Source of the DNA: Escherichia coli
GTDB taxonomy: Bacteria; Pseudomonadota; Gammaproteobacteria; Enterobacterales; Enterobacteriaceae
Strand: one strand, 5' to 3'
Assembly (NCBI RefSeq): GCF_044324785.1
Contig: NZ_CP172127.1
Length of the DNA stretch: 64,000 bases
Of the stretch, positions 2,621 to 52,279 are shown piece after piece; the stretch's first letter is position 1; each line of letters starts with the position of its first letter. The position numbers and the translations under genes are program-made. The notes below the pieces were generated by a model that searched no databases, was not told the origin of the DNA, and saw only the letters and a list, made by a program, of their open reading frames with translations.

Positions 2621-3680
2621 TGGTTGCCCCCGTTTTTCCTGGCATTTCGCCACCTTCCAGCAGGAAATGAACGTCACGAACGGCGAGATCCAATATCGCG
2701 AGTAACGCCTTCAGTCTTTCGTCTCGTGAGGGAGAGTTGCTCACCAGAATGTCGTTAATCACTTCTGTCAGTGTGATGATCTGGCTTGTGCGTTCGAGGG
2801 GATCCATATGCACATCGTAGGTTTTAATCATGAGCCACCTCCATGCGGATACGACCAGCAAAAAAGCAGACGTGATCGCGCACCAGAGAACGGCGAGCAT
2901 CGCGTTCAGACTCGGCAGCAATATGATGAATTTTGGCGGTAATTGTCGGGCAATCGCGGCGAACTGCGGCGATAATCCAGATAAATTGCGGTTTTTGGGT
3001 AGGGGTAGTAGCCAGCATGTGGCAGCCTCCATTCGATAGCATGTAACGCTACCACCGGAAACGCCAATTTCGCTGGTGGTAGCCCAGACAGGGTTGGCGT
3101 AACCGGCTCGAATGGATACCGGCGCTTCCGAAGAAGCCCCTGCCTGAGCCACCATTGATTGACAAAGGCGCTGGATTATACACCAACGCCCAAAAAATGG
3201 GTGAGTCAGACCTACGACATAAAAAAAGACGCTCGGCGCGTCATATGTCGCCATTCGATTTACCAGGACGCCAATCCCGGCACCCGTTTTATGAGGTGCC
3301 TTATAACCATAAACCGTGTTGCCGCATAACGGCAAGCTCTTTTTTATGGACTCCGAAAACTCGCTATTGGAAGCACCAGATGCACAGTACATCGCGCTCA
3401 TTTCGTTAACGTCACGCACGTGGACGAATGTTTTTGTGGAGTCACTACACGAGCGGAAGACATCATCTACGACCAGAAATTTTCTGGCGCAGCCGCTGAC
3501 CTTCTCAACGCTAACACCATCGACCGTAATTTCTGACATAGTTAAGGCATCCGCTCCCACCACCAGAAAATGATAAACTTTGCTTGTATCTGCTGTATTA
3601 ATGCCAGACTTTGCTGTCATATTGCTGGATTTTGGCGACATACCTGCCAGTGAAAATGTCTTCTTCTGGACGGTTAGCAT
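2613..3680 (-). CDS. hypothetical protein; gene structure uncertain (355-aa ORF, possibly two genes)
   Basis: Single uninterrupted ORF with a GGAGG Shine-Dalgarno 7 nt before its ATG at 3680; however a second strong GGAGGTG ribosome-binding site precedes an internal ATG at 2831 and the middle of the ORF has a W/C-rich composition atypical of real protein. Confidence 0.3.
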
Positions 3681-5435: not shown

Positions 5436-6386
5436 TTAACTATCCACTTTGCCATTTGCCGCAGATCGTAGATGTTTAAGAATTACATCTTCATTAGTTA
5501 TCATAAGTGGTGGAACTTCGTCTAAATGACGAACAAGACAGTCACGCCACTTCTCAGGGCTTATTTCTTTCCTTTCTCCCCTGCATTCATTTGGATACTT
5601 ACTAAGTATATAAATTGCAGATTTTAATAGTTTCTCCCTATTGACTGCGTACCGTTCGGCACGTTTATTAACTTTTAGCGTATTTATATCATTGGATAAC
5701 TTGTTTGCGGATGGTTTGTGCATGGGTCTGTCATAAATATATTTTCCTCCATTTATAAGAAGATTGTATTCATAGTCAGTTATATACATTTTGTTTCGGC
5801 TTATTTCATACCAGCCGTCAATATAAAAAGCTCCGATTTCATAATTATTCGATTTGCTAAACTCGTCACATCTCGGAGGTATCAGTTCGCATACAGAGAT
5901 CTCCCAATCATCCCATTCTGATAGCTCCCGCTCATCGTTATCTATGAACGCAGGCGGAATTGCTAATAGACCGCTCCATCTTTCGATATCTCTTTCATCC
6001 TTCCCAACATTGTATCGCTCTATAACTGAGAAATGTTCTGATTTGTATGAAAACCTCATAAAATACATATAGTTATCGCTATTTTTATAATCAAGTGATG
6101 ATAAGCCATATGATTCGAGATTATCTGCCTTATTGCTCAGATCAAGGAGATAATTCTCATGTGCTGCTTTTGTATCTATATGAAAAATACTATCTGTTTC
6201 AACTTTAAGTAATTCTGGCTCGGCATCTTCATTTTTTGGGTAATGGTAAAACAATTCAATAGGTGGAATTTTTATACATATTTCTAAAACCCCAATTGCT
6301 GCATAGTGTATTAAATCGGATACTTCACATCCGGCCAGTTTGGCTGCTTTATCCAAAGAATAATATTTATGCGCAGGTAATTTCAT
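5436..6386 (-). CDS. hypothetical cargo protein (316 aa), AT-rich, between integrase and alpA
   Basis: Long ORF with markedly AT-rich codon usage compared with flanking genes; N-terminus has an HTH-like stretch (SLDKAAKLAGCEVSDLIHYAAIG); acidic, Y/N/K-rich remainder without recognisable catalytic motif. Confidence 0.55.
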   Translation of the reverse strand: MKLPAHKYYSLDKAAKLAGCEVSDLIHYAAIGVLEICIKIPPIELFYHYPKNEDAEPELLKVETDSIFHIDTKAAHENYLLDLSNKADNLESYGLSSLDYKNSDNYMYFMRFSYKSEHFSVIERYNVGKDERDIERWSGLLAIPPAFIDNDERELSEWDDWEISVCELIPPRCDEFSKSNNYEIGAFYIDGWYEISRNKMYITDYEYNLLINGGKYIYDRPMHKPSANKLSNDINTLKVNKRAERYAVNREKLLKSAIYILSKYPNECRGERKEISPEKWRDCLVRHLDEVPPLMITNEDVILKHLRSAANGKVDS

Positions 6387-6404
6387 TATGAATCTTTCCT
6401 CTCA

Positions 6405-7658
6405 TCATGCTCTGATTGGCGTTACGTTGTAGTCTTTTCCGCTTTCCAGTGCCACCAGCAGATCTGCCCACTGTGCTAGTGCTGCTTTACGCTCATCAAA
6501 ATACTGATGACGGTTATAAATCCCCTCTACGCCCTTAATGCGATGATTGAGGCATCGTTCCGCCACGACAGGATCAACACCCAATGCTGCTAAATGAGTA
6601 CGTGCGGTGCGTCGGAAGTCGTGAATCGTGAAATTAGGCACATCCGGAATTTCGGCGCGAACCTTAGCCAGTGCTACGGGTAAAGTGCTTTCCTGAATAT
6701 GTGGGATCATTCTGTTTTGCATCTTCCTGGCCGGAAGCACCCATGCGCTATTACATGAAAAGGTGTGTAGCTCTCTCAACCATTCAACGGCTGGGGAAGG
6801 TAGAGGTATATCAATAGGGTCTCCGTTTTTGCTGCGTTCTTCCGGCAAATGCCATACCGCACCATCTAAATCAAACTCTTCCCATCGTGCGGCGCATAAC
6901 TCCATCTTACGAACGCATAGTGCCAGCAATAGTTTAAATGTCAGTTCGTTTTGGCGGCTGAATCCTTTTGCGGTGCGCATAGCCTCGAATAGTCTGATAA
7001 GCTCATCGCGAGTTAGCCAACGGTCGCGGGAAACCTCTTTACCACCAGCATCAGATACTTCAAACGCTGAACAAGGGTTTATCTCCAGAGCGTGGCGTTT
7101 TATCCCATAGTCAAAGATACGGCGTGTCCAGCGCAATACATCTGTTGCTATCGTTGGTGCTCCTCGGTCAACGATACCTTTCAACATGTCGTCAATGTGG
7201 CGTGGCTTAACGTCCTCTACCTTCATATGCCCAATGCAGGGGTTAATATCCTTATCAATTCTCCGGCGAAGGATATCGGGATGTTTCCATCTCGGAAGTA
7301 TCTGGCGCTCGAAGTATTCGGAGGCCAGATCTGAAACACGCATGGCGTTTTTCTCAGCCTCCATTTTTGCCAGTGCTTCAGCTTTTCGTTCCTGTTTCTC
7401 TGCTGCTACGTCATAGCCAAGAGCAACTCTGGCTGACAGCTCTTTTGCTGTTTCTCTGGCTTTTGATAGTGACAGTTCGGAGTAAGAGCCTATAACCATA
7501 GCCCGCTGCTTTCCTGCGAGCTTATAGCGGAATCGCCAGAACGGGACTGTGTAGTTTTTGGGGTAGCAAATATAAAGGCCGTTGCCGTCTGCCTTGCCAT
7601 CAAATCTGTCTCCCGCCTTTATCCATGCGCGGATCTGCATATCTGTGAGTTTTGGCAT
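6405..7658 (-). CDS. int: tyrosine site-specific integrase, P4-type
   Basis: ORF 6405-7742 trimmed to MPKLTDMQIRAWIKAGDRFDG... (typical P4-integrase N-terminus); C-terminal catalytic region contains ...HDFRRTARTHLAALGV... and ...GIYNRHQY... (R/H-x-x-R/Y signature). Confidence 0.85.
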   Translation of the reverse strand: MPKLTDMQIRAWIKAGDRFDGKADGNGLYICYPKNYTVPFWRFRYKLAGKQRAMVIGSYSELSLSKARETAKELSARVALGYDVAAEKQERKAEALAKMEAEKNAMRVSDLASEYFERQILPRWKHPDILRRRIDKDINPCIGHMKVEDVKPRHIDDMLKGIVDRGAPTIATDVLRWTRRIFDYGIKRHALEINPCSAFEVSDAGGKEVSRDRWLTRDELIRLFEAMRTAKGFSRQNELTFKLLLALCVRKMELCAARWEEFDLDGAVWHLPEERSKNGDPIDIPLPSPAVEWLRELHTFSCNSAWVLPARKMQNRMIPHIQESTLPVALAKVRAEIPDVPNFTIHDFRRTARTHLAALGVDPVVAERCLNHRIKGVEGIYNRHQYFDERKAALAQWADLLVALESGKDYNVTPIRA

Positions 7659-7686
7659 TGCGAATACCTGAATATCGAATATGGGT

Positions 7687-7738
7687 GTGTACATAAAGCA
7701 ATGTACATGAAAGTCATTATGTACACCTCTATGTACAC
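7687..7738. promoter_or_regulatory. four direct copies of ATGTACA-like motif just upstream of int: candidate integrase arm-type binding sites / att region
   Basis: gtgtacat (7687-7694), atgtacatg (7701-7709), atgtacac (7719-7726), atgtacac (7731-7738) visible directly in sequence. Confidence 0.35.
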
Positions 7739-7783
7739 GCATATTGTGCGCTTTGTTGCGTCGTTATGATAGCTCATGATAAC

Positions 7784-9618: not shown

Positions 9619-10260
9619 ATGAAACCATATCAGCGCCAGTTTATTGAATTTGCGCTTAGCAAGCAGGTGTTAAAGTTTGGCGAGTTTACGCTGAAGTCCG
9701 GGCGCAAAAGCCCCTATTTCTTCAACGCCGGGCTGTTTAATACCGGGCGCGATCTGGCACTGTTAGGCCGTTTTTACGCTGAAGCATTGGTGGATTCCGG
9801 CATTGAGTTCGATCTGCTGTTTGGCCCTGCTTACAAAGGGATTCCGATTGCCACCACAACTGCCGTGGCGCTGGCGGAGCATCATGACCTGGACCTGCCG
9901 TACTGCTTTAACCGCAAAGAAGCAAAAGACCACGGTGAAGGCGGCAATCTGGTCGGTAGCGCGTTACAAGGACGCGTAATGCTGGTGGATGATGTGATCA
10001 CCGCCGGAACGGCGATTCGCGAGTCGATGGAAATTATTCAGGCCAATGGCGCGACGCTTGCTGGCGTGTTGATTTCGCTCGATCGTCAGGAACGGGGGCG
10101 CGGCGAGATTTCGGCAATTCAGGAAGTTGAGCGTGATTACAACTGCAAAGTGATCTCTATCATCACCCTGAAAGACCTGATTGCTTACCTGGAAGAGAAG
10201 CCGGAAATGGCGGAACATCTGGCGGCGGTTAAGGCCTATCGCGAAGAGTTTGGCGTTTAA
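9619..10260 (+). CDS. pyrE: orotate phosphoribosyltransferase
   Basis: [40 protein letters not shown]...; PRTase motif [13 protein letters not shown]. Confidence 0.95.
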
Positions 10261-10295
10261 AAATATGCGCTGTGCAGGGTTTTTGCTGTGCGCAG

Positions 10296-10326
10296 CGTGA
10301 TGCGCTTTAAGATATCGTGTTAATCT
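10296..10326 (+). promoter_or_regulatory. possible retron promoter (extended -10 TGt-TAATCT, weak -35)
   Basis: TG at 10318-10319 followed by taatct at 10321-10326, about 6 nt upstream of the predicted msr 5' end at 10332. Weak match; could also be read-through from pyrE. Confidence 0.25.
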
Positions 10327-10331
10327 GCTTT

Positions 10332-10525
10332 CGCCAGCAGTGGCAATAGCGTTTCCGGCCTTTTGTGCCGGGAGGGTCGGCGAGTCGCCGACTTAACGCC
10401 AGTAGTATGTCCATATACCCAAAGTCGCTTCATTGTACCTGAGTACGCTTCGCGTACGTCGCGCTGACGCGCTCAGTACAGTTACGCGCCTTCGGGATGG
10501 TTTAATGGTATTGCCGCTGTTGGCG
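10332..10525 (+). ncRNA. msr-msd: retron msr-msd non-coding RNA (template and primer for msDNA), bounded by a1/a2 inverted repeats
   Basis: a1 10332-10348 (cgccagcagtggcaata) pairs with a2 10509-10525 (tattgccgctgttggcg) as a 17-bp RNA duplex with two G-U wobbles; unpaired G at 10349 in the context AUAG-C is the candidate branching G; msr hairpins ccggc-cttttgt-gccgg (10355-10371) and gtcggcg-agt-cgccgac (10376-10392); msd palindromic block 10434-10480. Confidence 0.6.
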
Positions 10526-10557
10526 CCTCTTTTGGCCGCCGTGATGTGGAGAGTGGA

Positions 10558-11517
10558 ATGGATGCTACCCGGATAACCCTTCTGGCGCTCGATTTGTTCG
10601 GCTCGCCGGGCTGGAGCGCCGATAAAGAAATACAGCGGCTGTATGCGCTCAGTAATCATGCCGGACGCCATTACCGACGCATTATTCTTTCTAAACGCCA
10701 CGGTGGTCAGCGGCTGGTGTTAGCCCCTGATTACTTGCTCAAAACCGTACAGCGCAACATTCTTAAGAACGTTCTTTCACAATTTCCGCTTTCCCCTTTT
10801 GCTACAGCCTACCGACCAGGTTGCCCAATTGTCAGCAACGCGCAGCCTCACAGCCAACAGCCACAAATACTGAAACTCGATATCGAAAACTTTTTCGATA
10901 GTATTAGCTGGTTACAGGTCTGGCGTGTGTTTCGCCAGGCCCAGTTGCCACGTAATGTGGTAACCATGCTGACCTGGATTTGTTGTTATAACGACGCGTT
11001 ACCGCAGGGGGCACCAACTTCGCCAGCCATTTCCAATCTTGTGATGCGCTGTTTTGATGAGTGCATCGGGGCATGGTGCCAGGCACGAGGAATTACCTAC
11101 ACCCGCTACTGCGATGACATGACTTTTTCAGGTCACTTCAATGCCCGCCAGGTTAAAAATAAAGTGTGCGGATTGTTAGCGGAGATGGGCCTGAGCCTCA
11201 ATCAACGCAAAAGCTCCCTGATAGCTGCCTGTAAGCGCCAGCAGGTAACCGGGATTGTTGTTAATCACAAACCACAGCTTGCCCGCGAAGCGCGGCGGGC
11301 GCTGCGTCAGGAAGTACACTTATGCCAAAAATATGGCGTCATTTCGCATCTTAGTCGTCGTGGTGAACTTGATCCTTCATGCGATCTCCATGCACAGGCA
11401 ACGGCGTATCTTTATGCTTTGCAGGGAAGAATAAACTGGCTATTGCAAATCAATCCTGAGGATGAGGCCTTTAAACAGGCGAGGGAAAGTGTAAAGCGAA
11501 TGCTGTTGGCATGGTAA
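10558..11517 (+). CDS. ret: retron-type reverse transcriptase (319 aa)
   Basis: Start at ATG 10558 preceded by GGAGAG; contains RT motifs ...LPQGAPTSPAISNL... and ...ITYTRYCDDMTFSG... (YxDD box); size typical of retron RTs with no extra fused domain. Confidence 0.9.
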   Translation: MDATRITLLALDLFGSPGWSADKEIQRLYALSNHAGRHYRRIILSKRHGGQRLVLAPDYLLKTVQRNILKNVLSQFPLSPFATAYRPGCPIVSNAQPHSQQPQILKLDIENFFDSISWLQVWRVFRQAQLPRNVVTMLTWICCYNDALPQGAPTSPAISNLVMRCFDECIGAWCQARGITYTRYCDDMTFSGHFNARQVKNKVCGLLAEMGLSLNQRKSSLIAACKRQQVTGIVVNHKPQLAREARRALRQEVHLCQKYGVISHLSRRGELDPSCDLHAQATAYLYALQGRINWLLQINPEDEAFKQARESVKRMLLAW

Positions 11518-11525
11518 GAAAAGCG

Positions 11526-11547
11526 TCAGGCAGACGTTTCTGCCTGA
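11526..11547. terminator. hairpin between convergent RT and slmA genes
   Basis: tcaggcaga-cgtt-tctgcctga perfect 9-bp stem in the 43-bp gap. Confidence 0.45.
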
Positions 11548-11560
11548 ACGTTTGGGAGAA

Positions 11561-12157
11561 TTACTGCAACTGTGCGGCAATTAGCGGCCAGCGGGCGTCA
11601 AAATCATCCGTCGGGCGGTATTTAAACTCGCTGCGGACAAAGCGTGACAGCATACCTTCACAGAAGGCCAGGATCTGGCTTGCCAGCAGGGTTTCATCGG
11701 TGGTGTAACCTTCACCCTCACGCATTCTCTTTTCGCGCAATACCTGACGCAACTGCGCTTCAATACGCTCGAACAGCTGGTTGATGCGCCCTTGCAGGCG
11801 ATCCTGTTCAAACATTAGTGCATGACCAGTGAGGATGCGGGTCAGGCCAGGATTACGCTCACCAAAACCGAGAAGCAGCAACACAATCAGACGCAGGCGC
11901 GCTGTGGTGTCCTTCTCATCTTTCAGAATCAGATTGATGCGAGTAATCAGGCTATCTTCGATAAACTCAATCAGGCTATCGAACATGCGGGTCTTACTGG
12001 GGAAGTGGCGATACAGTGCCGCTTCGGAAACGCCGACAGAGGCGGCCAGTTTTGCCGTCGTGATACGTTGGCTTCCATCGCTGGATTCCAGCATCAGCGC
12101 CAGAGACTGAAGTATTTCCTCGCGACGGTTCCTTTTCGCAGTTTGTTTTTCTGCCAT
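11561..12157 (-). CDS. slmA: nucleoid occlusion factor SlmA (TetR family)
   Basis: ORF trimmed to [52 protein letters not shown]... Confidence 0.9.
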
Positions 12158-18424: not shown

Positions 18425-18474
18425 CAGTGCGGTATCAGTATTCAGGTAGCTGTTGAGCCTGGGGCGGTAGCGTG
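18425..18474 (+). promoter_or_regulatory. JUMPStart element containing ops site (GGCGGTAGCGTG) for RfaH-dependent antitermination of the waaQ operon
   Basis: cagtgcggtatcagtattcaggtagctgttgagcctggggcggtagcgtg read directly; ops 12-mer at 18463-18474. Confidence 0.8.
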
Positions 18475-46564: not shown

Positions 46565-49500
46565 TTACCACTGAATACCGGCACCGAGTGCGGCGGAGTA
46601 TTCACCCTGGCTATTGGTACTACCTTGTAATTTGTAGACCCAACGACCATTGGCGCTCACCATCGACACACCTAAAGCAACAGCCGACTCACCGTTGTAA
46701 GTACCGCCACCAATAGAGGCCATACTGGCACCTGGAGTGTAAGCCTGCGGCAGACCGGTCATTGCCATTGCAGAAGCGATACCACCGCTCAACTTGCTTT
46801 CGGTTTTGGACAGTTTGTTATCCATCTCAACCATCCGCTGATCGGTGTATTGCTTCGTTTCCTGCACGCTTTGCTTCAGCTGCGCATAGTTCACTGCGTC
46901 GTTGTTGTTCACGCCAGCGGAGACGTTGCTGATGCGAGTCGTACCGCCATTACCACCACCGAGAGTGATGTTGCTGTAGTCTACAGAGCCATCAGCTTTG
47001 GTGTCGTAACGAACGCCGCCTGCCTCAGAAGACTTCAGCTGCGAAACGTTAACCGCATCGGTGGCATTAACACCTGCAGCAACGTTGGTGATACGACGCT
47101 GGTTGGTAGAAGAACCCACAGAGATGGTATTTTCTTCGTTGGCCACGGAGCCTGTACCCAGCGCGACGCTGTTGTCAGCGGCAGCAATGGAACCAGAACC
47201 AATCGCAACACTGTCTTTACCCTGCGCGTTGGCATCTACGCCATCGGTGTTGGTCTTGAAGTATTTGGTGCTACCGGTGGTTACGATATCGCCAATGCCG
47301 TTTTCGATATTGGTAACGCGAGTATCCAGATTCGTCACCTGATTGTTCAGGTTAGTAATGCTCTGGGTATTCTGGGAAACCTGCGCGTCCGTTACTTTCA
47401 ACTGACCCACGTTGACCGCATCGGTATCAGCCGAACCAGCCGCGACGTTGGTGATCTGACGTTGACCGTCTTCACTGCCGACAGAGAACTCACCCACAGA
47501 GTTCTGCGGTGCATCCATGTTGTAGGCGGTGTAGCCAGTTTGAGCACCACGAGTCGTCTGTGAGCCATTACCCATAGCAATGCTGTTTGCATGGTTTGCA
47601 CGCGCGTTGCTACCAATAGCAATACCGTTGATCGCATCAGACAGAACCAGAGTGTTCAGGCCGATACCAATGCCCGCATTACCATTAACGATAGTATTCG
47701 CGCCCATTGCCAGCGAGTCAGTACCTACTGCCAGTGAATCTTCTTCCGTTGAATTAGCGTGGAAGTATTTAGTCGGCGTGGTTGCAACTGCACCAATGGC
47801 ATTTTGCAACTGGCGAACCGTAACGGCGTCATGGGCTTCGGAACCATCGGCTACGTTGATGATTTGACGATATTTACCATCATCACCAATAGACAACGCA
47901 CCAAGTAGTTCGCCATCCGTGGTGTCATAACCAATCACAACACCTTCTTCCGACACGCTGGTGTCACGAGAACCTTTAACTATTACACGGCTGGAAACAG
48001 AACTGCTACCCAGGGCGATACCCGTATCAACGTCGCTGTAGCTGTCCTGACCGATGACTACACTGCTATGGCCTTCGGCAACAGCGTTATAACCCACGGC
48101 CACGCTGCTATCGCCTTTGGCAACAGAGTCATAACCGACAGCGGTAGAGCCGATACCAACTGCGCTGGCGTCGTTGAACGCTAAGCCCTTATCGTTGGTA
48201 CGCACATAGTTAATACCTGCACCATTTTCGTTGATATAGGATTCGCTGGTGTCACCGGCAAGCTGATTGATGATTTCGCTGTTCTGCTGGATCATCATAT
48301 TGGTGTTAAACAGCTGAGAACCGTTGATGGCGTCGGTACTGCCTTCGCCAATGTTACCATCAGCAACGTTTGTGATGATGCTGGCCTTGCCGTCATGGCT
48401 GGCGTTGTAGGCACCTGCACCGTCATTGGCCGTTGCATCCCACAGCAGAGCGTTATCGTCGAGCGCATCCAGGGCGTCACCGACGTTGTTGTACTCGGCA
48501 TTTGCAATGGTGTAACTCGGCGCAGTGATAGTGCCGTCAGCGTTAACTTCTGCGTCACCCCCCAGGGCATCGGCAATGTATTTGTTGGTGGTATACAGTT
48601 GTGAACCGTTAATGGCATCGCTGCTGGTGGCAGAGATTGCACCGTTAGCGACGTTAGTGATTACACTGGCTGTTTTATCTTTTCCGTGAGCGGCGCTAAA
48701 TGCACCATTACCATCATTGGCTGTAGCATCCCACAGCAGGGCGTCATCCAGCGTGGTATCGATCGCTTCCAGCGCGTCACCGACGTTGCTGTAACTGCCG
48801 CCAGCGATGGCATAAGTCGGTGCGGTGATTGTGCCGTCAGCATTGACTTCTGCGTCACCACCCAGAGTATCGGCAATGTACTTGCTGGTGTCATAGAGCT
48901 GTGAGCCGTTAATAGCGTCGCTGCTGGTAGAGGAAATTGCACCGTCTGCAACATTAGTAATGATGCTGGCCATGTTATCTTTTCCGCGACCGGCGCTAAA
49001 CGCACCGTCACCGCCCTTGGCGGTCGCATCCCAGAGTAGGGCGTCACCGAGTGATGTGCTAAATGACGTGTTAATGGCTGCCAGAGCCTCACCGACGTTA
49101 TTGTAGTCAGTACCACCAATAGTGTAGGTTGGCCCGGTTAATACACCCGCATCGCTGATATCAGCACCACCGCCAAGGTATGACGTAAATGAATCAGCTA
49201 AGCCATAAAGTTGTGAGCCATTAATGGCGTCAGTGCTGTCAGAGGATACTGTGCCTGCCAGTAAGTTGGTGATTTTGCTGTCAGTACCGTTGGTGCCGTG
49301 TTTGGCACTGAATGCACCCGCCGTAGCATTCCACAGCAGAGAGTCATCACCGAGACTGTCAACAGCATCACTCAGGTTGTTGATATTGGTAGTGTTGGTG
49401 GTGATATTGGCGGTATTGGTCGCCACGTTATCGTTGGTGGTTTTCAGCTGAGAGCCGTTAACCGCGTCGGTGCTGCCAGCCGCCAGTTCACCGGCTTTGA

Positions 49501-52279
49501 CGTTGGTGATTTTGTTGGTGGCATCGGTGCCGTGCGCGGCGCTGAATGCTTTCGCTGCATCATTCCACAGCAGAGAGTCATCACCGAGACTGTCAACAGC
49601 GTCAGTCAGGTTGGTGATGTTGGTGGTGTTCGTGGCGATATTGGTGGTGTTGGCTGCCACGGCATCGTTAGTGGTTTTGAGCTGAGAGCCGTTAACCGCG
49701 TCGGTGCTGCCAGCCGTCAGGTCACCGTCTTTGACGTTAGTGATTTTGCTGGTGGCATCGGTACCGTGTGCGGCGCTGAATGCTTTCGCTGCATCATTCC
49801 ACAGCAGAGAGTCATCACCGAGACTGTCAACAGCGTCAGTCAGGTTGGTGATGTTGGTGGTGTTCGTGGCGATATTGGTGGTGTTGGCTGCCACGGCATC
49901 GTTAGTGGTTTTGAGCTGAGAGCCGTTAACCGCGTCGGTGCTGCCAGCCGTCAGGTCACCGTCTTTGACGTTAGTGATTTTGCTGGTGGCATCGGTACCG
50001 TGTGCGGCGCTGAATGCTTTCGCTGCATCATTCCACAGCAGAGAGTCATCACCGAGACTGTCAACAGCGTCAGTCAGGTTGGTGATGTTGGTGGTGTTCG
50101 TGGCGATATTGGTGGTGTTGGCTGCCACGGCATCGTTAGTGGTTTTGAGCTGAGAGCCGTTAACAGCGTCGGTGCTGCCAGCCGTCAGGTCACCGTCTTT
50201 GACGTTGGTGATTTTGCTGGTGGCATCGGTGCCGTGCGCGGCGCTGAACGCGGTGCCATTCCACAGCAGGGCATCGTCTTTAAGGTCGCCAACGGAATCA
50301 GTCAGGTTGGTGATATTGGTGGTGTTGGTCGCTACGTTATCGTTGGTGGTTTTGAGCTGAGAGCCGTTAACCGCGTCAGTGCTGCCAGCCGTCAGGTCAC
50401 CGTCTTTGACGTTGGTGATTTTGCTGGTGGCATCGGTGCCGTGCGCGGCGCTGAACGCGGTGCCATTCCACAGCAGGGCATCGTCTTTAAGGTCGCCAAC
50501 GGAATCAGTCAGGTTGGTGATATTGGTGGTGTTGGTCGCTACGTTATCGTTGGTGGTTTTGAGCTGAGAGCCGTTAACCGCGTCAGTGCTGCCAGCCGTC
50601 AGGTCACCGTCTTTGACGTTAGTGATTTTGCTGGTGGCATCGGTGCCGTGCGCGGCGCTGAACGCGGTGCCATTCCACAGCAGGGCATCGTCTTTAAGGT
50701 CGCCAACGGAATCCGTCAGGGTATTGATACTGTTAGTGTTGGTGGTGATATTGGCAGTATTGGTCGCTACGTTATCGTTGGTGGTTTTCAGCTGAGAACC
50801 GTTAACCGCATCCTTACTGGTATCAGAAATAGCGCCGTCTTTAACGTTGGTGATGGTACTGGTAGTATCTGTACCATGTGCCGCACTATATGCCTTTTTA
50901 AGGGAGTCCCATTGTAACGTATTATTGTCCAGGCCCGTTAAGGCGTCGCCAACAGTGCCGAAAATACCACTTTTCAGCCTGTAATTTGGGGAAGTAACGA
51001 CGCCTTGCGCATTGACGGTAGCCCCCCCACCAAGATTGTCCGCTACTGACTTACTGATAGCATAAAGCTGTGATCCATTGATGGCATCAGTACTGGTAGT
51101 GCTGATATCACCTGCTGCCATATTGACAATTTGTCGCTGAGCTGTTGTGTTACCCACAGAAACAGTATCCGCGTCAGTCGCTACAGAACCAGCACCCAGA
51201 GCAACTGAATTTTTCCCCTGAGCACTGGCTTGAGCACCAATTGCAGTGCCATTTTCTAAACCGGCATAACTGCCTTGTCCAAGAGCAATAGCATTTACAC
51301 CACCTGTAATACTACCATTACCCAGCGCGATAGCATTTGCGCCGTCAGCTTTATTCCCTTGACCGATGGCAATTGCGCCAGCCGCTACTGCCTGACTTTG
51401 ATTGCCCAGAGCAATCGTGTTGTCGACATCTGCAATACTGCCGGAGCCCAACGCGATACTATTAAGTCCATTTGCCTCCGCGTTAGTACCAACTGCCGTC
51501 GCATTTTCAGCAGCTTTGCTCTCTGCACCCATAGCAATCGCGTTTGCGTCGCTGGCGGCGGATAGTCTGCCTAATGCGAGGCTGTCTACGCCAGCAGCAG
51601 CACTGTTACGGCCTACTGCAATCGCGTTAGCTGCAGATGCGGCACTACTTGCACCCAGCGCCATTGCATATTCTTTCGACGCATTAGCCGTTGCACCGAG
51701 GGCGATACTCATAATTCCTAAGGCCTTGCTCTTACGTCCAAATGCGATGGCGTCATCAGCACCAGTCTCTGCGTAATCCCCTTGTGCAATAGCAAATTCA
51801 CCTGTTGAGTTTGCATAACGACCAAGTGCGATTGAAAATCCACCCGTTGACGTTGCCGATGCACCTATAGCGAGGCTTCGCTCACCTGCTGAGATAGTGT
51901 TAATCCCTAACGCCACTGATGCTTCGCCAAGCGAATGGGTCTTAGCACCGAGGGCTGTTGACCACCTTCCGTCAGCAGTTGAGTGATAACCTACTGCGGT
52001 GCTGGAGCCACCCCCGGTGTCTGTAAAGCTATTTGCTTTTGCATCTTCACCGATAGCAACCCAGCCTGTTCCTGTGCCCTGGCCATAATTGACGCCCTGA
52101 CCGTTGTCAATCCCGGCATTCGCCAGTGCCCCAAACGACGACAACAACCCACCCGCAACCAGGGCAGAAATTAACAGCTTACTGCGCCCGCTCTTTTTGC
52201 CACGGCTTTTGGCCGTTTCGCTGGCAACGGTGTAACTGCCCGTAGCCGGATTCCAGATAACTTTAAAAATTTTGTTCAT
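46565..52279 (-). CDS. trimeric autotransporter adhesin (YadA-like membrane anchor; UpaG/EhaG/SadA family), 1904 aa
   Basis: N-terminal extended signal peptide [21 protein letters not shown]...; hundreds of residues of NxxAxG/SxAxG head and neck repeats; C-terminal YadA-type anchor ...[41 protein letters not shown] ending in aromatic residue. Confidence 0.9.
49452..50800. repeat. near-identical in-frame tandem repeats inside the autotransporter gene (3 x 234 bp then 3 x 207 bp)
   Basis: Antisense ORF track shows identical 71-aa peptides at 49704 and 49938 (period 234) and identical 62-aa peptides at 50172 and 50379 (period 207); in the sense frame the protein repeats [48 protein letters not shown]... 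Confidence 0.85.

Follow-up and report, generated by a model that had tools for sequence, protein, structure and literature searches.

Positions 10332-10525 of the analysed window, a stretch of 64,000 nucleotides of the Escherichia coli contig NZ_CP172127.1, almost certainly constitute the msr-msd ncRNA gene of retron Ec107 (Retron-Eco5), located where this retron is canonically inserted in the chromosome and present as an allele that hardly differs from the one characterised. This assignment follows from the family of the adjacent reverse transcriptase (RT), the insertion site between pyrE and slmA, the identity of the ncRNA sequence and the matches of published primers. The element itself is already known and ordinary, being the long-known E. 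coli retron Ec107 that was characterised in 1992 (Herzer, Inouye and Inouye). The practical value of the analysis lies in the coordinate-level annotation of an RNA gene that is marked by neither RefSeq nor Rfam, while the comparative alignment provides independent evolutionary support for the Ec107 fold. The features of the element are the following:

10261..11560, plus strand: whole retron insert, 1300 bp, from the pyrE stop to the slmA stop, delimited by comparison with MG1655
10318..10326, plus strand: extended -10-like element TGtTAATCT, with the pattern TGnTAnnnT conserved upstream of the 5' arm
10332..10348, plus strand: 5' arm a1, CGCCAGCAGTGGCAATA, 17 pairs with 10509-10525
10349, plus strand: predicted priming (branching) guanosine in the context AUAGC, invariant in 16 homologues
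10349..10399, plus strand: msr domain, with a possible closing 4-bp helix GCGU 10349-10352/ACGC 10396-10399 (RNAalifold)
10354..10372, plus strand: msr hairpin 1, 5-bp stem 10354-58/10368-72, 9-nt loop
10374..10394, plus strand: msr hairpin 2, 9-bp stem 10374-82/10386-94, 3-nt loop AGU
10401..10508, minus strand: predicted msd, template of the msDNA of about 107 nt (complement, minus sense), ends placed to within 1-2 nt
10418..10496, plus strand: structured core of the msd, a three-way junction (RNAalifold, pair counts and DNA fold)
10418-10427/10487-10496: msd lower stem
10435-10438/10476-10479: msd GTAC stem
10443-10448/10452-10457: msd hairpin A
10461-10464/10469-10472: msd hairpin B
10508, plus strand: invariant G 5' of the 3' arm, opposite the predicted priming G (column 204 of the alignment, 16 sequences)
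10509..10525, plus strand: 3' arm a2, TATTGCCGCTGTTGGCG, pairs with 10332-10348
10558..11517, plus strand: retron RT, 319 aa, motifs NAQPH, YCDD and VTG, PADLOC RT_Ec107-like
11526..11547, no strand assigned: hairpin with a 9-bp stem at the insert's right end, resembling a terminator of slmA (minus strand)

Chromosomal site and reverse transcriptase

In the K-12 strain MG1655, the stop codons of pyrE and slmA lie apart by a 36-bp spacer, AGAAACTCGCCGGATGAAAAGTCATCCGGCGTCATA, which contains the palindrome CGCCGGATGA/TCATCCGGCG, and it is this spacer for which the window has 1300 bp instead. The gene order comprises pyrE, which ends at 10260, the RT open reading frame on the plus strand and the convergent slmA (ttk) from 11561. 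Retron Ec107 has been described as a 1.3-kb element that takes the place of a 34-bp palindromic intergenic sequence between pyrE and ttk, with no prophage nearby (PMC6868368; Simon et al. 2019), and the insert in the window indeed lies between pyrE and ttk/slmA with the palindromic spacer of about 34 bp lost. The flanking chromosome is about 99% identical to E. coli, and pyrE is 99.1% identical to that of E. coli genomes carrying the common Ec107 allele.

The ncRNA region was found in 381 of 5426 complete E. coli genomes, with an identity of 99.3% in 359, and no annotated RefSeq feature lies under the match in E. coli genomes. Likewise, Rfam yielded no family over the region, be it in the whole window at gathering thresholds or in 10200-10700 at E values up to 10. 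The sequence identity of the ncRNA to Ec107 was measured against the copies in E. coli genomes: between 10261 and 10545, 2 of 285 positions differ from the common E. coli allele. In addition, the published cloning primers for the Ec107 ncRNA (Kong et al., PMC8563936 supplement) match 10391-10415 and 10497-10519.

Downstream of the ncRNA and on the same strand, the RT carries the NAxxH and VTG motifs and the xxDD catalytic box that are characteristic of retrons; its start was set at the ATG chosen by RefSeq for the homologues in E. coli. The best PADLOC match is RT_Ec107-like (5.5e-132), followed by other retron RT models, of which RT_III-A is next (1.7e-93). The length of 319 aa and the YCDD box agree with Ec107, as YCDD is a peculiarity of RT-Eco5 (PMC6868368). 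The RT gene shares 96.0% of its nucleotides with the common E. coli allele (38 of 960 nt differ), and an identical allele was found in none of the complete E. coli genomes of the collection. The codon differences comprise 24 synonymous and 12 non-synonymous ones, which indicates purifying selection on the RT, and from these sequence comparisons both RT and ncRNA appear to be maintained by selection. At least one E. coli genome, that of IAI39, has a pseudogene annotation for the RT.

Terminal stem and overall fold

The initial annotation had proposed a 17-bp duplex of the two arms in which both mismatches are G-U wobbles, and direct reading bears this out: all 17 positions pair, the non-Watson-Crick pairs being G10337-U10520 and U10341-G10516. 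Both wobbles hold on the plus strand only, where the minus strand would have C-A mismatches. The stem thereby represents the complementary ncRNA ends (8-30 nt) of a retron. An inverted-repeat search recovers the same pair of arms, extended to 22 nt at 82% complementarity, and among 1000 dinucleotide-shuffled versions of 10200-10700, 6 contained an ungapped stem of Watson-Crick and G-U pairs of at least 17 bp with a loop of 60-300 nt.

RNA folding of 10332-10525, which had been suggested as a check, revealed a strong fold, as the 194-nt RNA folds at -95.3 kcal/mol compared with -67.1 ± 4.2 in shuffles (z = -6.76). Since the complementary strand folds as well (z = -6.11), folding energy alone gives no strand. 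A prolongation of the terminal stem past the G10349-G10508 mismatch (C10350-G10507, G10351-U10506 and U10352-A10505) shows in the single-sequence fold and in the inverted-repeat search; it was rejected because column 203 varies uncompensated. The alternative GCGU/ACGC helix is 95% paired.

Comparative alignment and covariation

The fold was compared in an alignment (A2) of 16 homologous sequences from upstream of RTs, which were aligned over the whole ncRNA. The fetched loci form a graded series from a protein search, with RTs that are 88% to 54% identical, and stem from Escherichia sp., enterobacterial metagenome contigs, Pseudocitrobacter, Leminorella grimontii, L. richardii and Pragia fontium. 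One locus was added by a scan of species-representative genomes, while the other homologues were obtained by the protein search and contig look-ups.

The RNAalifold consensus of the 16 sequences comprises 57 pairs, and 97.9% of the cells are standard pairs. Compensatory changes on both sides occur in 21 of the 57 pairs, a number that was reached by 0 of 500 column shuffles, and pairing falls to 30-43% if the partner is slid by 1-3 columns. These changes are distributed over the helices as follows:

Terminal stem: 8 of 17 pairs compensatory, 97% of cells paired
msr hairpin 1: 3 of 5 pairs compensatory
msr hairpin 2: 4 of 9 pairs compensatory, 99.3% of cells paired
msd hairpin A: 3 of 6 pairs compensatory

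All elements of the RNA-level msr-msd structure put forward beforehand are thus present, most of them with covariation support from the 16 homologues. Moreover, the arms and msr hairpins 1 and 2 together hold 73 G-U cells versus 3 A-C cells, and therefore the terminal stem and the msr hairpins are helices of the plus-strand RNA. In the msd helices, 346 cells are Watson-Crick, 1 is GU, 1 is AC and 4 are otherwise mismatched. Such near-pure Watson-Crick pairing would be expected of a region that must be able to fold at the RNA level and, once copied, at the DNA level.

The msr domain and the predicted priming guanosine

The motif ATAG including G10349 is invariant in 16 of 16 sequences, and TAGC is the usual priming context of retrons (PMC6868368). 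A conserved guanosine in this context hence follows the 5' arm on its inner side, where the priming nucleotide of a retron would be located. The previous description of G10349 as the first base after the 5' arm, in the context AUAGC, holds, while its designation as unpaired is uncertain because the consensus fold can pair it with C10399; in the single-sequence fold it is unpaired. The helix GCGU/ACGC, to which this pair would belong, is paired in 95.3% of cells, and with one compensatory pair and three one-sided changes the alignment lends slight support to such a closure of the msr domain.

The two msr hairpins had been placed at 10355-10371 and 10376-10392. Both exist and covary, and only their extents had to be enlarged slightly, to 10354-10372 and 10374-10394. 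Retrons usually feature one to three msr hairpins with stems of about 7-10 bp and loops of 3-10 nt, which is what is found here, although the 5-bp stem of hairpin 1 is slightly below the usual range and hairpin 2 lies within it. The RT-binding element of Eco1 and Eco3 comprises an 8-9-bp stem and a 3-base loop (PMC6868368), and by analogy hairpin 2 is likely the RT recognition hairpin.

Position 10389 within hairpin 2 is C in the window, giving the pair G10379-C10389, and T in the common E. coli allele, giving a G-U pair; it constitutes the sole difference from the common allele inside the RNA. Since C is also present at this position in the divergent E. coli strains E400634 and R32_14_1F as well as in other genera, the T of the common E. 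coli allele looks derived.

The msd domain and the boundaries of the msDNA

Between the msr domain and the 3' arm, retrons contain a structured msd, usually one long hairpin; here it adopts the three-way junction listed above. A long imperfect palindrome at 10434-10480 had been regarded as the single stem of the msDNA. Its outer part does pair (GTAC, as well as TGAG with CTCA in the window), whereas the inner part, 10444-10471, is not one hairpin, and the lower stem 10418-10427/10487-10496 had been missed. In the single-hairpin register, inspection by eye finds 4 Watson-Crick and 2 G-U pairs among 12 positions of 10444-10471. One long hairpin over 10434-10480 was accordingly rejected, as its inner 28 nt pair poorly and covariation favours two small hairpins. 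DNA folding, likewise suggested as a check, confirmed that the predicted msDNA is structured: with DNA parameters the 107-nt molecule forms the same three-way junction (z = -3.5).

In the outer stem of the msd (10439-10441 versus 10474), TTAAG replaces CTGAG in 3 of 4 E. coli genomes examined, namely those of strain 48, E400634 and R32_14_1F. This G-to-A change produces an A-C mismatch in the RNA and a G-T wobble in the msDNA strand. As a single event, it hints that the DNA-level structure is what is tolerated in this stem.

From the end of the msr domain to the 3' arm there are 109 nt (10400-10508), and this segment measures 108-110 nt in 15 of 16 homologues. An msDNA length of 107 nt was taken from the name of the element, and the segment allows it, since a DNA of this length fits if synthesis begins directly beside the 3' arm and leaves the last 1-2 nt ahead of the msr domain uncopied. 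The earlier estimate of an msd at roughly 10400-10508 and an msDNA of about 107 nt is therefore compatible with the 109-nt segment, with the reservation that the first template base may be 10507. In Ec86 the 3' arm is preceded by a G, and the cytosine before this G is where reverse transcription begins (PMC6868368, figure legend); inspection of the Ec86 string TTCTGACGTAAGGGTGCGCA confirmed that G adjoins the 3' arm. Because of this analogy, and because G10508 is invariant while 10507 (column 203) varies among G, C and A in the 16 sequences, G10508 may sit opposite the branching G with templating from 10507. Starts at 10508 and 10507 both give dC as the first base and both fit the 109-nt segment. 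As for the 3' end, termination in Eco1 is independent of secondary structure, and the length of the Eco5 DNA changes without RNase H1 (Palka et al. 2022, PMC8989520). The 3' end was consequently placed from length only. The msDNA would thus start opposite 10508 or 10507 and end opposite 10402 or 10401.

Transcription signals and terminator-like elements

Among 16 distinct homologous sequences, 15 have the pattern TGnTAnnnT of the extended -10-like element at a fixed distance from the predicted priming G, and this holds across two genomic contexts (pyrE-slmA and cyaY-cyaA). A simple sigma-70 scan did not call it, as there is no good -35 element. From its position, the predicted RNA start is at about 10332-10334, where the 5' arm begins. 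For Ec107, the RNA is reported to be about 75 nt long and branched at its 18th residue, which would correspond to G10349 with an RNA start at 10332.

A U-rich tract, CCTCTTTTGG (10526-10535), directly follows the 3' arm, and T-rich equivalents are present in most homologues. Together with 10512-10525 it was flagged as terminator-like by a simple scan, and it could reduce transcriptional read-through towards the RT or else define where the ncRNA ends. A hairpin, CGCTGTGC ... GCGCAGCG, was seen by eye at the insert's left junction (10268-10296), and related pyrE-slmA loci feature analogous GCTGCG...CGCAGC hairpins after pyrE. It is probably the pyrE-side terminator that stands in for the K-12 palindrome.

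Proposed mechanism

What was observed, namely the sequence elements and how they are conserved and covary, the strand to which the msr helices belong, the family of the RT and the chromosomal surroundings, suggests a course of msDNA synthesis. In it, priming by G10349, the promoter with its start site, the precise ends of the DNA and the choice of hairpin by the RT are drawn by analogy with other retrons. Transcription would proceed from the extended -10 promoter at 10318-10326, start at about 10332 and continue through the RT gene. The arms 10332-10348 and 10509-10525 would then form the 17-bp stem and thereby bring G10349 next to the template, while the RT would bind the msr hairpins, most likely 10374-10394 with its 9-bp stem and 3-nt loop. 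Subsequently, the 2'-OH of G10349 would prime the cDNA, which would start opposite 10508 or 10507 and run leftwards for about 107 nt to about 10402 or 10401, just short of the msr domain. Finally, host RNase H would strip the template to yield a branched RNA-DNA molecule with the 2'-5' linkage expected of a retron, the DNA part of which is predicted to form the three-way junction.

Alternative explanations

The structure might also be read as an intergenic terminator or attenuator, or a REP-like palindrome, that serves pyrE, slmA or the RT gene rather than as a template-primer RNA. The K-12 spacer that was replaced is itself a palindromic, terminator-like hairpin, and the U-rich tract behind the flagged 10512-10525 segment recurs after the 3' arm of homologues. 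On the contrary, the structure spans 194 nt with four independently covarying helices, is always found directly upstream of an Ec107-type RT in three genomic contexts and contains the invariant TAGC priming motif, while the local hairpin picked up by the scan has only 5 pairs and is in competition with the 17-bp stem, which is much stronger. Moreover, Ec107 is counted among the experimentally validated retrons, and RT-dependent msDNA has already been reported for the Ec107 allele (PMC6868368), so that a mere terminator is extremely improbable. A decaying remnant, in which the structure is kept by recent descent and msDNA is no longer made, is likewise very unlikely. The lack of a linked effector, the pseudogene annotation in IAI39 and an RT allele 4% off the common one would suit such decay; against it, the RT frame is intact with all catalytic motifs, its codon differences bear the mark of purifying selection, and the ncRNA differs at just two positions, of which the one inside the RNA replaces a G-U by a G-C pair, as found in the other genera.

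The locus may, on the other hand, be the Ec107 msr-msd with priming or boundaries other than those given above, that is, with a start at 10507, a 3' end that lies some bases from 10402 or an RNA 5' end that is processed downstream of 10332. Such deviations are quite possible. Ec86 starts at the cytosine before the G that adjoins its 3' arm, and msr 5' ends are often trimmed (PMC6868368); an invariant G10508 beside a variable 10507 is what a structural rather than a templating G10508 would leave, and the RNase H1 dependence of the Eco5 DNA length (PMC8989520) leaves room for a shifted 3' end. Nevertheless, the sequence favours neither 10508 nor 10507, given that both starts are dC-first and compatible with 109 nt.

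Relation to known retrons

The element in the window resembles Retron-Eco5 (Ec107) in its pyrE-slmA/ttk site, the insert of about 1.3 kb, the 319-aa YCDD RT and the absence of an accessory gene. It differs from the common E. coli Ec107 allele in the 96.0% nucleotide identity of its RT gene, which entails 12 amino-acid differences, and in the C instead of T at 10389.

Retron-Eco1 (Ec86) shares the architecture, comprising a terminal stem, a UAGC priming G after the 5' arm and an opposing G before the 3' arm; in both elements, moreover, the msd is structured, the RT is encoded downstream and an msr hairpin has a loop of 3 nt. The terminal stem of Ec86, 12 bp long, compares with 17 bp in the window element, and the msd of Ec86 is a single long hairpin in place of a three-way junction. 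Furthermore, Ec86 features an NDT-type effector and a prophage context, neither of which applies to Ec107. The sequences of the two elements are unrelated, the RT identity amounting to about 24% (PMC6868368 supplement).

By their RTs, Type III-A retrons come closest once the Ec107 model is set aside, as judged by the PADLOC match to RT_III-A given above, and the Ec107 branch shares a node with RTs that are linked to PRTases (Mestre et al. 2020). Type III-A systems encode a PRTase-like effector (clusters 67/113, Mestre 2020), with or without a winged-helix protein, and no PRTase-like effector is present at the retron in the window. The adjacent pyrE does not place the element in Type III-A, as it is a housekeeping gene that is also present in the retron-free K-12.

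Effector question and function

The insert contains the ncRNA and the RT only. No match to a PADLOC defence family was obtained for the neighbouring open reading frames, and an accessory gene was found in 0 of 12 fetched loci with called genes. The linked effector of the tripartite defence systems (Mestre 2020, Millman 2020) is thus absent from this locus, which is the known state of the Ec107 branch (Mestre et al. 2020).

Related retrons occupy different sites, namely pyrE-slmA in Escherichia-like and Pseudocitrobacter-like loci, cyaY-cyaA in Leminorella and a site elsewhere in Pragia. As the Leminorella and Pragia loci lie elsewhere, adjacency to pyrE is not conserved, and its loss outside Escherichia-like loci argues against pyrE as the effector of the retron. 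Mestre et al. (2020) had left open the role of the neighbouring phosphoribosyltransferase. In four Leminorella-type loci (L011, L012, L017 and L018), a minimal unit of ncRNA and RT is located between cyaY and cyaA, where the 3' end of the RT gene overlaps the convergent cyaA stop by a few bases and mobility genes are absent. These loci are a further case of insertion between housekeeping genes that are convergent or adjacent.

Taken together, a linked effector is missing and the unit of ncRNA and RT is conserved in 13 loci at three kinds of site. It may tentatively be proposed, as a suggestion that is on the whole somewhat doubtful, that the Ec107 lineage is a functional retron without a cis-encoded effector, fixed between housekeeping genes in several enterobacterial genera, with its RT under purifying selection and a conserved three-way-junction msDNA. 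If this were true, the msDNA of Ec107 would act via an unlinked partner or outside abortive-infection defence, for example in starvation physiology. According to the literature, Ec107 is induced on starvation, and it was left out of the phage tests by Millman et al. Ec107 is the best-known effector-less retron, and a defined structure helps tests of the role of its msDNA.

Further features of the window

Two additional open reading frames were considered around the retron, at 10393-10701 on the minus strand and at 11511-11708 on the plus strand, and neither found support as a gene. The latter frame, of 65 aa, yielded no PADLOC match and overlaps slmA on the opposite strand.

Further upstream, Rfam matches were obtained for C4 antisense RNA (3072-3159, minus strand) and isrK (3222-3299, minus strand), near two large minus-strand open reading frames (5436-7742) whose counterparts in matching E. 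coli genomes carry the annotations tyrosine recombinase/integrase and hypothetical protein. The stretch with C4/isrK and the integrase frames is covered by 40 of 5426 genomes. This stretch by yicC looks like an integrated phage-like island, situated about 2.5 kb from a retron that has been described as not prophage-associated.

An Rfam JUMPstart element was detected at 18436-18474 on the plus strand (55.2 bits). Elements of this kind are typically found in leaders of polysaccharide or LPS-core operons. At 49-51 kb, stems of Watson-Crick and G-U pairs of up to 22 bp were flagged; they were not accepted as true inverted repeats, as the inverted-repeat search found none there, and they lie inside a 1904-aa open reading frame (46565-52279, minus strand), which is probably the gene of a repetitive large surface protein.
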